Assembly (NCBI GenBank): GCA_963845185.1
Contig: CAWJRG010000009.1
Coordinates: 768,001 to 832,000 of the forward strand
DNA: 64,000 bases
Reading direction: 5' to 3'
Source of the DNA: an uncultured bacterium
Lineage (GTDB): Bacteria; Oederibacteriota; PGYV01; CAWJRG01
A program made the position numbers and the translations under genes. This document shows, one piece after another, positions 32,741 to 47,107 of this stretch (the first letter of the stretch is position 1; each line of letters begins with the position of its first letter). The notes under the pieces are model-generated. The model saw nothing but the letters and a program-made list of their open reading frames with translations. It ran no database searches and had not been told where the DNA came from.

Positions 32741-32815
32741 TGGCTGGGGAGCTAGGGCTCGAACCTAGAGATGCGGGCGCCAAAGGCCCGTGCCTTACCA
32801 TTTGGCTACTCCCCA
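32741..32815 (-). tRNA. tRNA-Gln (TTG)
   Basis: TGGGGAGTAGCCAAATGGTAAGGCA CGGGC CTTTGGC GCCCG ...GGTTCGAGCCC... CCA; folds as a cloverleaf; ispE-tRNA-Gln linkage is common. Confidence 0.95.
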
Positions 32816-41397: not shown

Positions 41398-42498
41398 TTA
41401 TAATATTGCCGTTTCGTTTGACGCGTCAAAAAAATGCGCCTTGTTCATGTCAAATACCAGCTCGAGTTCCTGGTTTATGTCTATCTCCGCGTCGGAGTCC
41501 ATCTTCGCTATGAACGGCGTCTTCCCTGTCGTCAAATACACCAGGTTTTCGCTTCCAAGCGGTTCCACTACCTCAACCGTTGCCACCACCGTATTGTCCG
41601 CGCTCGCGTTCGGAGCGTACACCTTGTCGTATATGTCTTCCGGCCTTATTCCCATTATTATCGGCTGCCCTGCCTTGCCCTTCAGCAGCGCTCCCATCGA
41701 CTCCGGCACCTTTACCTCGAAATTCTCTTCGTTGAAAAATAATCCCCCTTTCTTTTCCTCCAGTATTCCGTCTATGAAATTCATTGACGGGCTCCCTATA
41801 AATCCTGCACAGAATTTGTTCACTGGCTTATCATACAGTGTCTTCGGGTCCGCTATCTGCTGTATCTCTCCGTCCTTCATTACCACTATCTTCTCCCCCA
41901 TTGTCATTGCTTCCACCTGGTCGTGCGTTACGTATATCATTGTCGCCTGCAGCCTCGTGTGCAGCTTTGAAAGCTCTGCCCTCATCTGCACCCTTAGTTT
42001 TGCGTCCAGGTTCGACAACGGCTCGTCAAACAAGAATACCTTCGGCTTCCTTACTATCGCCCTTCCTACCGCTACCCTCTGCCTCTCTCCTCCGGACAGC
42101 TCTTTCGGCTTCCTCTTCAGCAGTTTCTGTATCCCGAGTATATCAGCCGCCTCGTCTACCCTCTGCTTTATCTCTGCCTTCGGGTATTTCCTCAGCTTTA
42201 ACCCAAATGCCATATTTTCCTCTACTGTCATGTGCGGGTATAACGCGTAGTTCTGAAATACCATTGCTATATCCCTGTCTTTCGGTTGTACGTCGTTTAC
42301 CATCATGTCATCTATAAATATCTCCCCTCCTGTCGCTTCCTCCAGTCCTGCCACCATCCTCAATGTCGTTGTCTTTCCGCATCCGGATGGCCCTACCAAT
42401 ATTAAAAATTCTTTATCTTCGCATACTATATTTGCACCTTTTACTGCAAGTACGTTTCCGTATTTCTTCATTACATTTTTCATTACTACTCTCGCCAT
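41398..42498 (-). CDS. Sugar ABC transporter ATP-binding subunit (MsmX/MalK/UgpC family), orphan
   Basis: GPSGCGKTT, FQNYALYPH, LSGGERQR, DEPLSNLDAKLR, YVTHDQ, TOBE-like end; no permease genes adjacent. Confidence 0.95.
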   Translation of the reverse strand: MARVVMKNVMKKYGNVLAVKGANIVCEDKEFLILVGPSGCGKTTTLRMVAGLEEATGGEIFIDDMMVNDVQPKDRDIAMVFQNYALYPHMTVEENMAFGLKLRKYPKAEIKQRVDEAADILGIQKLLKRKPKELSGGERQRVAVGRAIVRKPKVFLFDEPLSNLDAKLRVQMRAELSKLHTRLQATMIYVTHDQVEAMTMGEKIVVMKDGEIQQIADPKTLYDKPVNKFCAGFIGSPSMNFIDGILEEKKGGLFFNEENFEVKVPESMGALLKGKAGQPIIMGIRPEDIYDKVYAPNASADNTVVATVEVVEPLGSENLVYLTTGKTPFIAKMDSDAEIDINQELELVFDMNKAHFFDASNETAIL

Positions 42499-42553
42499 TT
42501 TGTCCTCCGCTATTTTGTGCTGATTTTTGTAAAAATTATTGAAATTCCTAGTG

Positions 42554-42582
42554 ATAATAACACTTTATCTTTATTATGTCAA
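42554..42582 (-). promoter_or_regulatory. Sigma70 promoter TTGACA-17-TATTAT
   Basis: Near-consensus boxes upstream of the ABC ATPase gene. Confidence 0.65.
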
Positions 42583-42812
42583 TAATATTGCCTAAACTTG
42601 ATAATTGAAAGTTTAAAATATTTTAATTTAAACAAAAATAATAGCTTTAGATATTAATTTAACGAAAAACCCTATTTTAAGAAATACAAATAATTATAAT
42701 AACAGTGATTATACAAAGATAAGCCCATGATATTCAAAGCGTATTTTCGATAAAATAAGGTTGTTATTTATACTTCTTATTTGCATGTAAACAATCTGGT
42801 TTTCAGTTATTC

Positions 42813-43181
42813 TTATGGAAGATTTCCTTCCAATTCCTCGCATTGATAGAGGGTTGTTTGGCTGAACGCAACTTTCCCATCCTCGTATATTTGCTCTAAA
42901 ACATCATCCCCGCAACCATCACATGCGGCTAAAGTAACTCTGGTTCCTGATTTTGCGTTATATGTAGGGGATTTCCACGGAAGGCTTGATGGTTCGACTT
43001 CATATCCTATACCATTCACGTAATATGTAGTCTGATAACCGTCATTATTATAACCTCCGCACCCACTGTTTGATACAGAGAAGTAAACCTTGTGGGTAAA
43101 TAGCGAGCAGGAAGAGCAGGACAGTGTAAGAATACAAATTACTGCTAAAACCATTAATAAGATTTTTTTGTGAGTAGACAT
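42813..43181 (-). CDS. Small Cys-rich lipoprotein (MmpS-like Ig fold); 3' exon of the intron-interrupted gene
   Basis: Lipobox LSC; SLPW.S.TY; the ORF start (ATG 43181) lies inside intron domain VI; the native ATG is at 45076-45078; paralogue at 45211. Confidence 0.8.
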   Translation of the reverse strand: MSTHKKILLMVLAVICILTLSCSSCSLFTHKVYFSVSNSGCGGYNNDGYQTTYYVNGIGYEVEPSSLPWKSPTYNAKSGTRVTLAACDGCGDDVLEQIYEDGKVAFSQTTLYQCEELEGNLP

Positions 43182-45074
43182 CTTTTATAACCTCCTTTGG
43201 TTACTTAATGCCCCTCTCAGAACCGAACGTGACCGTTTCGGTCATTCGGCTCCACGGGAATACTTCCTAATACGATGACAGCGAATAGGTTAAATGATAT
43301 ATCCTGGGTTCCGGCAATGGGTTGTATCTTAGAAAGCGGCAAAACTGTTCCCAGTTGTAACTTCTTTTCTGGCTTCGCCTGTTTATCCATTTATAGGCGA
43401 GCGCACGATTTCTCCAGTAGAATTTTGTTATTTGGGGCATATTACCGCTTATCCCGTAATAATTGTAGTGGCCCGTTAACTTTCTTCCTAATGCCTGCCA
43501 CCACTGTTTTAATTCCACAAGATTTCTTACGCTCTTTAGCCAGAAGTTCGTCGCCTTCATCTTCTGTTTGAATTTTGTACTTGCCGTCCTTCGGCCTAAT
43601 TTGAAGCCGCCCTTTCTGGTTTTGTCGCAGTAATGAGTAAACCCGAGGAAATCAAAGGTCGGAATTTTCCCGCCTGTATCTTTGGACTTATACCAGGCGT
43701 GGCGCCCGAATACGATTATTCTCGATTTATCTTTGGCGATTTTGAGGCCAAACTTATCAAGCCTCTGTCTTAACATTTCGCCAAACTCCTTTGCTTCGCT
43801 GTCATATTGGAACAGCACAACAAAGTCATCGGCATAACGTATCAGACTGGCGTATCCTTTGAGCTGTCTCTTGACATGCCTTTCGAACCACAGGTCTAAT
43901 ATGTAGTGTAGGTAGATGTTCGCCAGTAATGGGCTTAGTATTCCGCCCTGCGGCGTCCCTTTATCCGTTTCGATAAACTTACCTTCTTCCATAATCCCTG
44001 CATTTAATATCCTGCCGATTAACCTTATCAGGTTTGTATCGGCAATCCTTTGCGTAAGGCATTTCATTAGCCATTTGTGGTTTATGGTATCGAAAAACTT
44101 CTCAATGTCCATATCCACTACTGCGTTGACTGGCTTTGTCATTACTTCCTTATCCAGAATTTTCAATGCCTGATGACAATTTCTGTCAGGCCTGAACCCG
44201 TAAGATACTTCGCTGAAGTCTACCTCAAAGATTGACTCAAGAATTTTCTTTACCCCCATCTGGATTATCTTATCCTCGACGGCAGGTATTCCCAGCGGCC
44301 TCTTGTCTCCGTTTGTCTTGGGGATGTAGACGCGCCTTGTTGGTTGCGGTATGTATCTCCACGCCTTCATCCTATTGATTAAATCCTTGATATTTGCCTC
44401 TTTGTTGACTTCATATTCCTCTATCCTTACTCCGTCAATGCCCGGGGCTTTGTCCTGTTTTAACTCCCCAAAGCACTCCATTAGAAACTCCTCATTGAGC
44501 AGGTGTATCAGCGATGTAAATCTCAATTTTGGATTTTCCTTTGCCCGCATTGTTATGGTCATAAGTTTTGTTGCCATTCCGTCTCCACCTCTGTGTGTGG
44601 CGGTTGTCTCCCTTATGTCCATACGCATTCCCTCTATCCCCTTTTCTCCATCTACTTTCGTAGACTTCATCGATACTATGGGATAGTCAGACTGCCGGAA
44701 CATCTTTTGCGGCTCCTTATCTTTTAGGATTTGTCGCCGCATACTCTCGTTTTGAGGGTGTCCCGGCTCTCCCGAGTTCATATCTGCTCCTTGACATCTT
44801 GACACGGACTTAGACCCCGTCGGATTCCCACTCTCTCGCCTTTTTATGATTGTGGGACTGCTGCCTGCTCTTTTATGAAAAATGTCGGCCTCCGACACGT
44901 TGGCGATTTCGGGGCTCAATACCTTCACTTGCGTTGTATCCCGATGTCTCCCGCCTTCCAGCTTCATTTAGCTCGTTGCCTCACTATTTGTGGAATTTGG
45001 TATTGGGCTGGCGGCTGACCTTTGCCCAGGCTGGACTTTCACCAGCGCGAACCGATACGCTTTTCTCGGCGCAC
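43169..45074 (-). mobile_element. Group II intron (IIB-like, about 1.9 kb) with RT/maturase ORF
   Basis: 5' GTGCG at 45074; DV GAGCCGAATGACCGAAACGGTCACGTTCGGTTC (43220-43252); DVI GAGGGGCAT...ATGTCT-A-CTC with a bulged A; RT ORF in DIV. The 3' boundary is 43169 or 43170. Confidence 0.92.
43267..44577 (-). CDS. ltrA: Group II intron reverse transcriptase/maturase, no endonuclease domain
   Basis: APGIDG, RPLGIP..EDK, SYGFRP, D...FFD, GTPQGG.LSPLLANIYL, YADD, FDFLGF, domain X GHYNYY; likely start MATKL at 44577. Confidence 0.95.
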   Translation of the reverse strand: MATKLMTITMRAKENPKLRFTSLIHLLNEEFLMECFGELKQDKAPGIDGVRIEEYEVNKEANIKDLINRMKAWRYIPQPTRRVYIPKTNGDKRPLGIPAVEDKIIQMGVKKILESIFEVDFSEVSYGFRPDRNCHQALKILDKEVMTKPVNAVVDMDIEKFFDTINHKWLMKCLTQRIADTNLIRLIGRILNAGIMEEGKFIETDKGTPQGGILSPLLANIYLHYILDLWFERHVKRQLKGYASLIRYADDFVVLFQYDSEAKEFGEMLRQRLDKFGLKIAKDKSRIIVFGRHAWYKSKDTGGKIPTFDFLGFTHYCDKTRKGGFKLGRRTASTKFKQKMKATNFWLKSVRNLVELKQWWQALGRKLTGHYNYYGISGNMPQITKFYWRNRALAYKWINRRSQKRSYNWEQFCRFLRYNPLPEPRIYHLTYSLSSY

Positions 45075-45092
45075 TCATATTCCGCCTCCTTA
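45075..45092 (-). promoter_or_regulatory. Native RBS and start codon (5' exon) of the interrupted lipoprotein gene
   Basis: AATTAAGGAGGCGGAATATGA matches the paralogue's AATTAAGGAGACGGAATATG; a TTGCAT-17-TAAAAT promoter lies just upstream. Confidence 0.8.
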
Positions 45093-45210
45093 ATTGAATT
45101 TAAAAACAAAACTATTTTATCATTTTTCATTATCCCATGCAAGCAATTTCAGCCAGTATTTACTTTATCCCTAAGTCCAGTGCGTTTTTATTGTGCCATG
45201 AATTAAAAAT

Positions 45211-45558
45211 TTATATTGTGCCGTCAAGGGTTATACCACAGTTATAAGTATCATTGGCGCTTACCAATACGTTCCCATCCCTGTATATGTACATGTTAGT
45301 ATTATTGTTACAGCCTTCGCAACAAAATATTGAAACTGAAGATCCTGCTTTTGCAGTATATGTGGGAGACGTCCATGGCAGGGATGGATAAACCGTATAA
45401 GACGAACCGTTTACAGTATATTCTATCCAACTACTCGTACTGCAGGAACCTGTGTCAGTTACCTTAAAGTAAACTTTGTGGGCAAATAACGAGCAGGAAG
45501 AGCAGGACATCATAAAAACGCTGAATATAGCTAAAACCATTAATATAATTCTACGCAT
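45211..45558 (-). CDS. Small Cys-rich lipoprotein (MmpS-like), paralogue of 42813
   Basis: Shares LMVLA...SCSSCSLF.HKVYF, VNG, SLPW.SPTY.AK.G, C.GC, IY.DG. Confidence 0.82.
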   Translation of the reverse strand: MRRIILMVLAIFSVFMMSCSSCSLFAHKVYFKVTDTGSCSTSSWIEYTVNGSSYTVYPSLPWTSPTYTAKAGSSVSIFCCEGCNNNTNMYIYRDGNVLVSANDTYNCGITLDGTI

Positions 45559-45724
45559 ATTCCGTCTCCTTAATTAAAATCTTACGCATTACTTTTACCC
45601 GCCGAATTGCCAGCCGTGTTTAGAATAATTTGCAGTAAATCATTTGCCTTGATTTTATTTATATCATTTTCTACTGAATTTCGCAAGACGTTTTTAAAAC
45701 AATCCGGACGGCCGATATAAACCA

Positions 45725-45753
45725 TTGACATTAATAGTGTTTTATGTTAAAAA
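45725..45753 (+). promoter_or_regulatory. Probable rpsT promoter TTGACA-17-TAAAAA
   Basis: Consensus -35 box and extended TG. Confidence 0.5.
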
Positions 45754-45795
45754 TCATTTGTTTTTTTAACAAATCAACCGGAGGTATCAAGTAAA

Positions 45796-46056
45796 ATGCC
45801 GAATTTGAAAGCTTCTATTAAAGACGTCAGAAAAACCGCAAAAAGGACAGTGAGAAATAAAACAGCCATATCCGAAGTCAGGAGCACCCTGAAAAAAATT
45901 AAAAAGATAACTTCTGCCGAGGAAGCAAAAAAAGCCCTGCCCGGCGCTTATTCGGTGATTGACAAAGCCGTGGAGAGAGGGATTTTAAAAAAAAATACAG
46001 GCGCAAGGTATAAAAGCAGGCTGGCATCTTACGTCAATAAACTGCCGCAAAAATAA
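45796..46056 (+). CDS. rpsT: 30S ribosomal protein S20
   Basis: MPN.K.S.K..R......RN, IDKA...G..KKN..AR.KSRL; GGAGG SD. Confidence 0.96.
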   Translation: MPNLKASIKDVRKTAKRTVRNKTAISEVRSTLKKIKKITSAEEAKKALPGAYSVIDKAVERGILKKNTGARYKSRLASYVNKLPQK

Positions 46057-46071
46057 GCAACCACCCAAAAA

Positions 46072-47107
46072 TCAGTTTTTTTTCTCGTTAAGTTTCAAGA
46101 ATATCTTTTCAGAGCATCACCTGAAAAATAATCTTGCCGTTTTCTTTTGACGACAGCTTTATTTTTTTGTCAGCTTCCTTGACGATGCGCAGTACGTCGA
46201 TAAAAGGTGTCCCCGAAAAATTCTTTACATGGTCTTTGGCTTTCTTCATGGTGTACCAATTCATGAATTTCGACGCTTCCTGCTCTGCCTGTTTTGTAAG
46301 GTATCCTGATTTACCCATGTAATATTTCAGTATGTAAATCTTGTATATGGAGCTGAAAACAAACCCGAGCATTTGTTCCGGGGCCTCATCCTCGTATATT
46401 TTTTCCAGTATGGTCAGCGCTTTTTTCTCGTTTGCCTCGCCTATAGCATCGGAAAAATCAAATATGGAAAATCCCTTTTCAACTCCCCTTGTCTTGTTGA
46501 AATCTTCAACCGTAATATCGGTTTTATTTCCCGTAAAAAGCACGAGCTTGTCTATTTCGTTTTTTATAAATGCCATATCCCCGTTTGACTCGTAAATAAT
46601 GTAATCCATGACCTCGTAATCCATTTCTTTTTTGTCTTTTGCGGTATATGCCTTTGCCCAGTCCATTATATCCGAATCGCGAAGGCTTGAGAAATCAACT
46701 ATGTTTTTGCTCGATATGTCGTATTTTTCAAGTATCTTTTTTTTAAAATCCCTGCTTTCAAGCCCGGCTATAAGCGCCATGCATGTGAATTCCGGCATTT
46801 TCCCCAAAAAAGCCATCAGCCGTTCCAGTTCTTCGGTCTTTAACCTGTCGAACGATTTCACTATCAAAAGTTTTTTATTTGAAAAAAAAGGCCGCGTCCT
46901 GGCATTTTCTAAAAGGGATTCAATGGATATTTTTGAGTCTTTGTCGTCAACCTGGTAAACGTCGGTCCCGCTTGACGCGTCCCCGTCTTCGAATATTTTC
47001 ACAGAAAGCTCAAAAACAAATTCTTCATTTAAAAAACCGTTATTGCCCGCCAGAATGTAATACGGCTCGGTTTTGTTCTCAATAACCGACGCGAATCTTG
47101 GCAGCAT
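46072..47107 (-). CDS. holA: DNA polymerase III delta subunit (apparent 1-nt insertion near the 3' end)
   Basis: Y.L.G, PFF...KL.IV, NEIDKL, IFDF.DAI; leuS-lptE-holA context. The ORF stops at 46109 but the shifted frame gives EKIFLKLNEKKN to 46072. Confidence 0.85.

Follow-up and report, generated by a model that had tools for sequence, protein, structure and literature searches.

A widespread group II intron lineage that probably homes into translation initiation regions, with a candidate ribosome-binding site in domain VI

We found that a 64,000-nucleotide (nt) stretch of DNA from an uncultured bacterium of the Oederibacteriota (contig CAWJRG010000009.1, positions 768,001 to 832,000; hereafter the window) carries a group II intron inserted one base past the start codon of a small lipoprotein-type gene. 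It is highly probable that this intron represents a widespread lineage of mobile, IIB-like group II introns without an endonuclease (En) domain that home into translation initiation regions. The exon-binding sites EBS1, EBS2 and EBS3 of the lineage are complementary to NN-AUG-A, to the Shine-Dalgarno (SD) sequence or the spacer, and to the next A, respectively, and they change together with the target. Domain VI of the intron also contains a candidate ribosome-binding site with an in-frame start codon, which is a new observation of this study. The intron, its target and its exon-binding sites are located as follows (IBS, intron-binding site; IEP, intron-encoded protein).

43169..45074, minus strand: group II intron, 1906 nt, with the 5' end GUGCG (45074) and the 3' end ...CUACUCACA (43169)
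45085..45089, minus strand: host SD sequence GGAGG, the final two G of which are shared with IBS2; GGAGG is present at 7/7 copies in this genome
45075 (last base, A), minus strand: 5' exon end AAGGAGGCGGAAUAUGA, read from the sequence
45082..45086, minus strand: IBS2, GGCGG (exon positions -12..-8), forming four Watson-Crick pairs and one G-U pair with UCGCC
45075..45079, minus strand: IBS1, UAUGA, pairing with UCAUA; exon positions -5/-6 covary with the EBS1 loop
45078-45076, minus strand: host start codon ATG, inside IBS1 and followed by the final A of the exon (45075)
44902..44906, minus strand: EBS2, UCGCC, unpaired in the RF02005 alignment, in the internal loop after GAGCCCCGAAAU and preceded by GAGCCCCGAAA(U)
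44872..44881, minus strand: EBS1 hairpin loop, a terminal loop in RF02005, with UCAUA at 44878-44874 after GCCGAC
44812, minus strand: EBS3, the U in GGGGUC[U]AAG, pairing with the first base of the 3' exon and supported by covariation of the column

Insertion sites in the genome and among relatives

The limits of the intron were fixed from six near-identical copies at separate sites, where joining of the exons restores an open frame. The genome (3.5 Mb in 11 contigs) contains six full copies of 1905-1908 nt, with identity printed as 100%, and, outside the window, one 786-nt derivative without an open reading frame (ORF) (C1:269108-269895, minus strand; loci L007/L008). The derivative lacks the IEP, and its domains I-III and V/VI are about 90% and 98% identical, respectively, to those of the full intron; splicing in trans, with the IEP supplied by a full copy, may be possible. 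Its insertion site is again a GGAGG-N-ATGA start, that of a signal-peptide gene, and GUG replaces the AUG of domain VI. The 5' exons of all seven copies read GGAGG(C/U)(G/A)N(N)WW-AUGA, and the joined exons of the six full copies give an open frame with an MK start and a signal-peptide-like sequence. The presence of identical introns at different starts shows that the intron has moved recently within this genome. Splicing and retrohoming activity is suggested indirectly, by the six near-identical copies at six starts and by identical IEPs found at different sites in metagenomes. Contig pieces from two DNA runs (150-340 nt) all lay within the intron, and none joined across it.

The relatives come from a scan with the IEP, which yielded 54 loci from GTDB genomes and 330 metagenome stretches; the 80 best of the latter were retained. 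The record titles of the 54 loci name Omnitrophota, Aerophobetes, Aminicenantes, Elusimicrobia, Brocadia, Syntrophaceae, Actinomycetota, Chloroflexi, an ANME-1 archaeon and others, and one relative, L021, comes from an anammox bacterium. Intron ends were placed by nhmmer and simple patterns, which gave 97 5' junctions. An exon stretch of 20 nt or more was available for 87, and these represent 80 unique sites in this genome and the relatives together. Start codons were found at 72 of the 80 unique junctions (ATGA 65, ATGG 5, GTGA 1, and 1 in which the exon ends directly with ATG), and no junction was at a stop codon. ATGA has a per-position frequency of 0.0043 in the present genome, so that its occurrence at 65/80 sites has a binomial p of ~1e-138, and GGAG or GAGG is present at -19..-8 in 60/65 ATGA sites versus 6.5% of the genome's 30,026 ATGA sites (p 4e-65); the binomial and Fisher p-values of this study are, however, overstated because the sequences compared are phylogenetically related. 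The remaining eight junctions (L016, L023, L025, L029, L039, L040, L099 and L107) end otherwise. Two of these, L107 (exon end ACGA) and L016 (AUAGA), have near-miss start codons behind an SD sequence together with a start-type EBS1 loop. These host starts may have decayed after insertion, as is expected if the start codon in domain VI took over.

Frames and domain VI were counted at the 55 unique start-codon sites with at least 45 nt of 3' exon. The joined frame was open through 60 nt at 51 of the 55 sites, compared with 7 after a 1-nt shift and 28 after a 2-nt shift. The second residue of the joined product was K at 46 sites, N at 5, E at 3 and I at 1. Judging from their N-termini, the host genes look like those of FlgB, PurM, P-II, NifU-type, response-regulator, aldo-keto reductase and IS110 transposase proteins and of many lipoproteins. 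L043 sits in the start codon of an IS110-family-transposase-like gene (N-terminus MIKYHVGVDVSKDKH...).

The first-pass annotation of the window had proposed SD-spacer-ATG-A as the homing site. This was borne out by 7/7 copies in the genome and by the 72/80 junctions at starts, but the proposal was incomplete: the first base of the 3' exon (+1) is A at 46/47 start sites and is also read, by EBS3. It had further pointed to a large pool of ATG-A targets. Under a crude rule that requires GGAG/GAGG at -16..-5, ATG and an ORF of 80 codons or more, candidate starts number 2,365 in the genome, including 1,061 with ATGA and 673 with ATGAA, and 44 in the window, including 23 and 15, respectively. The pool is thus large, but EBS2 of the window copy reduces it to 66 unoccupied starts in the genome, counted as those with at least 5/6 EBS1 pairs and at least 4/5 EBS2 pairs.

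Exon recognition at the start codon

In the Rfam RF02005 model, UCAUA occupies the loop of the EBS1 hairpin and UCGCC the internal loop before it, which agrees with the identities assigned in the first-pass annotation; the strings it quoted all occur at the plus-strand coordinates given for them, with their letters read on the minus strand. The EBS/IBS covariation that it asked for was also found, between EBS1 bases and exon positions -5/-6 and between EBS2 and the SD region. The pattern extraction of the EBS region missed 13 of the 80 sites, which were left out of the covariation counts, and the EBS1 test was made without L051, which has a decayed loop. The EBS1 loop consensus of the start-site introns is G-U-UCAU-N-N. 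Loop base 7 was paired with exon position -5 at 46/57 sites (shuffles 25.1, sd 3.7) and loop base 8 with -6 at 40/57 (shuffles 24.7, sd 3.5), and 0/5000 shuffles reached either value. Excluding the copies in the present genome, the values were 40/50 and 35/50, and again 0/5000 shuffles reached them. Loops with UCCAU occur with exons ending AUGG, and L042, with the EBS1 loop CAUAAG, is inserted directly after CUUAUG. EBS1 also fits the exon in relatives that are not at start codons, namely L040 (UCCGUG/CACGGA), L099 (UCCAGU/ACUGGA), L025 (UAAAGA/UCUUUA) and L039 (UGCCGC/GCGGCA).

For EBS2, the 8 nt after the GAGCCCCGAAA anchor were compared with exon positions -16..-7 and the best helix was scored. 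The mean best helix was 3.91 versus 3.42 in shuffled pairs (sd 0.10; 58 sites; 0/2000 shuffles reached it), and 3.86 versus 3.52 when the copies in the present genome were excluded (51 sites; 2/2000 reached it). A literal anti-SD sequence is found as EBS2 in several members: UCCUCC in L122, UCUUCC in four introns, and CUCCUU or UUCUCCUU in three. The exon of L020 has no SD sequence, and its EBS2 has AUUU opposite AAAU. Among the non-start relatives, EBS2 fits the exon in L040 (UUUAUC/GAUGAA) and L099 (UUGAC/GUCAG). Across the relatives more generally, the EBS2 position is complementary to the respective exons in, for example, L040, L025, L099 and L122. The pairing of UCGCC with GGCGG proposed earlier holds for the window copy, but there are two registers among the copies of this genome: GGCGG-N3-ATG in two copies and GGCGG-type-N2-ATG in five.

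The EBS3 column (44812, GGGGUC[U]RAG) is complementary to the +1 base in 15/16 cases, including 5/6 in which +1 is not A. Because this column covaries with +1, exon recognition is of the IIB type, with EBS1, EBS2 and a one-base EBS3 apart from EBS1. Two other candidates were rejected. Pairing of the UUUU 5' of UCAUA with AAAA of the 3' exon (delta-delta', in the IIA manner) does not hold, because the relatives keep G-U there, the base 5' of EBS1 remaining U irrespective of +1, and 44812 covaries instead. A second UCAUA, which had been noted at 44849-44845, is indeed present, but it lies in the loop of the next hairpin, is not conserved and reads ACCGU in relatives, so it is a coincidence.

Several points, besides the overstated p-values, weigh against homing by base pairing with initiation regions. 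EBS2 pairing is short and uneven, with a score of at least 4 in only 29/51 sites outside the present genome, and the full GGAGG, although kept at 7/7 sites in this genome, is only partly covered by EBS2. These two facts imply that protein contacts or selection on the survival of insertions may contribute. When 30 related genomes were searched with positions 42300-46100, neither an empty orthologous site nor an orthologue of the host gene was found; the matches were flanking conserved genes and two distant intron relatives only. For all seven copies the sense strand coincides with the G-rich one (GC skew of +0.07 to +0.14, measured across 10-50 kb), which fits the lagging-strand-template invasion reported for RmInt1-type introns (PMC4615759, in part; here and below, "in part" marks sources cited for the available portions of their text). 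The bias of 7/7 may, however, just mirror the usual co-orientation of genes and replication. The skew switches near C9:740,000 and C10:780,000, and three copies lie within ~100 kb of the C9 switch.

If survival rather than recognition were decisive, the intron would integrate at many AUGA-like IBS1 sites and only the insertions at gene starts would survive, with the SD sequence unread by the RNA. In the genome, 27 ATGA sites pair at 5/5 positions with EBS1 and 5/5 with EBS2 in the register of the window copy; only two carry an intron, and the other 25 mostly do not represent gene starts, as survivorship would have it. The weak EBS2 helices (score below 4 at 22/51 sites) and an EBS2 that spans just the final two G of a GGAGG kept at 7/7 sites also agree with it. 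It does not account for the covariation of EBS2 with the exon (0/2000 and 2/2000 shuffles), for the members in which EBS2 is a 6-nt anti-SD sequence, or for the relatives off start codons, which have altered both EBS1 and EBS2 to match the new site. In addition, intergenic and antisense insertions should be tolerable, and none was found among the 80 unique sites. We therefore regard survivorship as an unlikely explanation of the SD link.

Targeting of initiation regions by the intron RNA would proceed as follows. EBS2 would pair with the 3' part of the SD sequence or the bases just past it, and EBS1 with two spacer bases, the AUG and the next base; the core of EBS1, 5'-UCAU, contains CAU, the anticodon sequence of the initiator tRNA. 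EBS3, a single U, would pair with the following A. The consensus target would be GGAGG-spacer-NN-AUG-A/A, in which the slash marks the insertion point, that is, genes opening with Met-Lys or Met-Asn. The intron RNA would then reverse-splice one base past the start codon, and integration would presumably use the replication-fork pathway of En-less introns, into the sense strand.

A candidate ribosome-binding site in domain VI

The 3' part of the intron and the host gene comprise the following features.

43220..43252, minus strand: domain V, from the RF00029 alignment
43172..43216, minus strand: domain VI, from RF00029, with the bulged branch-point A at 43175, 7 nt from the 3' end
43191..43195, minus strand: GGAGG of distal domain VI, with GGA in the loop and GG in the distal stem
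43179..43181, minus strand: AUG of domain VI, 13 nt before the 3' splice site and in frame with the 3' exon
42813..43168, minus strand: 3' exon, a small Cys-rich lipoprotein-type gene (119 aa); IBS3 is the A at 43168
45211..45558, minus strand: unoccupied tandem paralogue (115 aa) with an ATG C start behind GGAGACGG

The 3' exon opens with six A followed by UC, and the joined exons give AUG AAA AAA AUC, with the predicted junction ...AUGA/AAAAAAUC. The predicted spliced product, MKKILLMVLAV..., has a lipoprotein-type signal peptide and matches the paralogue (MRRIILMVLA...) codon by codon. That the paralogue starts with ATG C and is unoccupied, as the first-pass annotation stated, was confirmed; it mismatches the intron at EBS2 (IBS2), at EBS1 (-1) and at EBS3 (+1). 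In the ORF list, the host gene starts at the intron-borne AUG (ORF 43181..42813, MSTH-KKILL..., 122 aa). The 5' part of an ABC-transporter ATPase gene downstream of the host gene (~42300-42520 of the window) recurs in the genome at C1:285427-285643 as a 217-nt stretch of 97% identity.

In domain VI, GGAGG (43195-43191) is followed by eight bases and AUG (43181-43179), which is the usual spacing of a bacterial initiation site. The AUG stands 13 nt before the 3' splice site in 55/55 start-site introns. Because 13 nt and the 4 nt of AUGA in the 5' exon are equal in phase, spliced and unspliced RNA would both be in the host frame, and the predicted unspliced product has S-T-H or S-T-R added after Met. 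GGAG or GAGG is found 5-16 nt upstream of this AUG in 54/55 start-site introns versus 1/6 others (Fisher p 6e-6), and the sole non-start relative that keeps it is L016, with the exon end AUAGA. The SD sequence is kept both in short versions of domain VI and in versions with a ~90-nt insertion; start-site members with the insertion keep SD-AUG downstream of it. The ~90-nt insertion, which has a conserved GAAA-capped hairpin, was seen in L013, L014, L016, L021, L029, L040, L096, L110 and L115.

These features suggest that the GGAGG-N8-AUG of domain VI allows translation of the host gene without splicing, three residues being added after Met, and on balance we lean toward this view. It is also quite possible that GGAGG and AUG are parts of a helix without any role in translation and stand in frame by a chance of the insertion habit. 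The AUG pairs with CAU of the 5' strand, two G of the SD sequence pair in the distal stem, and an alifold model built from 42 distinct short versions has 10 pairs, each of them standard in 42/42. Non-start relatives L029, L040 and L099 also have AUG at 13 nt, and a frame match has a prior of 1 in 3. All of these points speak against a translational role, and because non-start relatives keep the stem-paired AUG, the AUG itself may be structural. A helix without such a role does not readily explain why the SD sequence is present in 54/55 start-site introns, in short and insertion-bearing forms of domain VI alike, and is degraded or absent in 5/6 non-start relatives on several separate branches, nor why its spacing to AUG is that of an initiation site. 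It is the SD sequence, not the AUG, that tracks the start-codon habit.

In the precursor, pairing of EBS2 and EBS1 would cover the host SD sequence and AUG and thereby bar ribosomes from domain I, into which the host frame would otherwise run for 36 codons. Translation from domain VI would lower the cost of residing in real genes. We propose tentatively that the lineage imitates the reading of the ribosome, with EBS2 as an anti-SD sequence and EBS1 carrying CAU, and pays for it with a spare ribosome-binding site and a spare start codon carried by domain VI, from which the interrupted gene would be translated with or without splicing. Because the EBS segments would pair with the host SD sequence and AUG, splicing and host initiation would also be mutually exclusive. 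If true, this would be a built-in first-codon switch in dozens of genes that are unrelated to one another, among them genes for flagella, nitrogen regulation and purine synthesis.

Relation to known group II introns and implications

The window intron has the hallmarks of a group II intron: the GUGCG 5' end, domain V, a bulged A in domain VI and a reverse transcriptase (RT) ORF in domain IV. Rfam matches were obtained for RF02005 (group-II-D1D4-6) at 45039-44805 on the minus strand (100.4 bits, E 3.4e-27) and for RF00029 (domains V/VI) at 43254-43168 on the minus strand (49.1 bits). Domain I aligns with RF02005 from nt 1, without an insertion of the subdomain Ia type. The only further Rfam match in the window is a tRNA gene at 32744-32815, minus strand (RF00005, 62.5 bits). 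The IEP is located as follows.

43267..44577, minus strand: RT/maturase IEP in domain IV, 436 aa, with a Pfam RVT_1 match (1.7e-40); relatives align over residues 1-436

The start codon of the IEP is uncertain, as the reading frame is open from 44967. Pfam gave no HNH or endonuclease match for the window IEP, which ends ~50 aa past the maturase region, and the Pfam maturase family did not reach E 0.001 for it. The RT active-site motif of the window IEP is YADD; across the lineage the motif is mixed (YADD 58, YGDD 23 and YCDD 16 of 113 IEPs).

In a FastTree phylogeny of 113 IEPs, one clade of 97 sequences (support 96) holds 69 of the 71 start-site sequences. L029/L040 and L039 branch outside this clade, L025/L028 lie at its base, and L023, L099, L107 and L016 are scattered within it. 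The window intron falls in a clade of 23 (support 100), of which 20 are at starts and 3 at unassigned sites. The tree also contains identical IEPs at different starts. The closest annotated relatives on plasmids are 52% identical (Arthrobacter, Peribacillus and Ca. Megaera) and 43% identical (Sinorhizobium). Three plasmid relatives, L143-L145, match RF02005; neither an SD-ATGA 5' exon nor SD-AUG in domain VI was found in the inspected stretches of L144 and L145, the 5' junction of L144 not being located by the pattern.

The RNA and protein share features with those of RmInt1-type (class D/IIB3) introns of Sinorhizobium, which have an RT-maturase without the D/En domains, EBS1, EBS2 and a one-base EBS3. 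RmInt1-type introns have a 1-2 nt IBS2-IBS1 linker and prefer the lagging-strand template (PMC4075523 and PMC4615759, both in part), and the present lineage shares a variable linker and perhaps a strand preference with them. RF02005 also matches the Sinorhizobium plasmid intron with the 43% identical IEP, which is not RmInt1 itself because its EBS1 loop differs from the published EBS1 of RmInt1. Unlike the present lineage, RmInt1 homes into an insertion sequence, not gene starts. Assignment to class D was rejected: the C-terminal signature LX3AX3PXLF[V/A]HW of that class (PMC4615759, in part) was found in 0/113 IEPs and in none of L143-L145. The basal 'bacterial F' introns (Pe.th.I2, So.us.I2, Ge.ur.I1 and c-Ku.st.I1; Toro & Martinez-Abarca 2013) have RT-X proteins of 428-522 aa, lengths of 1.94-2.07 kb and IIB-type RNA (PMC3552965). 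Their loci are listed as 'putative non-coding sequence' or a methylase gene, and start codons are unmentioned (PMC3552965). The present lineage resembles them in size and domain content, as compared by description alone. Assignment to the g2 variety (Toro 2013) was rejected because the FADD motif is not shared, YADD being found instead.

Group IIC and IIC-attC introns offer a parallel in habit, as there too a whole lineage is specialised for a generic recurring genomic signal and not for one gene. Outward promoters of IIC-attC introns keep downstream cassettes expressed (PMC3001079, in part), an analogous cost-lowering device, whereas the present lineage would restore translation, not transcription. 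IIC introns lack EBS2 and recognise a hairpin in the DNA, whereas the present lineage reads SD and AUG by base pairing. Membership in group IIC was rejected, since EBS2 is present and covaries and the sites are SD-AUG, not hairpins.

A start/stop-codon habit has been described for a specialised IIB1/CL1 clade reported from proteobacteria (Michel, Costa, Doucet & Ferat 2007, as related in PMC12584367), including Avi.groEL and EcKTE56.groEL, with an En-containing CL1 RT and a subdomain Ia of 300-700 nt; how this clade finds the codons was stated in 2025 to be unknown (PMC12584367, in part). Like that clade, the present introns are group II retrotransposons tied to the initiation codons (there also termination codons) of real genes, including housekeeping genes (PMC12584367, in part). 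Shared habit and the many housekeeping hosts are the grounds on which the present lineage could be counted as a member of the clade, but this is very improbable, because its IEP ends soon past the maturase region without an HNH match, its domain I starts without an insertion in an intron of 1906 nt, and its hosts come from many phyla. By these described traits, no endonuclease and no domain I insertion, it is set apart. It also differs from the clade as described in the available text of PMC12584367 in using start codons only, in offering a plain EBS/IBS explanation and in carrying SD-AUG in domain VI. L015, L020, L021 and L025 have an extra 30-40-nt hairpin at ~nt 37 of domain I, roughly at the position of subdomain Ia in the IIB1 clade.

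No account of the lineage or of a ribosome-binding site in domain VI was found in the literature covered, including the available portions of PMC4424553, PMC7306698, PMC8919778, PMC3245105, PMC7923331 and PMC2882425; Michel et al. 2007 and Simon et al. 2008, which lie outside this coverage, may bear on novelty.

In conclusion, bacterial group II introns are said to avoid genes, with the IIB1 clade, at start and stop codons, as the single exception known. The lineage described here would be a second, unrelated and apparently much more widespread one, whose mechanism is legible from sequence. For annotation, it means that gene callers place the starts of host genes at the intron-borne AUG, here 43181, and miss the true start 1.9 kb upstream. 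The lineage offers testable models for the low-cost colonisation of many essential genes by a retroelement and for a possible competition of the folding intron with loading ribosomes for one stretch of 20 nucleotides. It may also serve as a model for gene-targeting introns that insert at start codons with expression kept.

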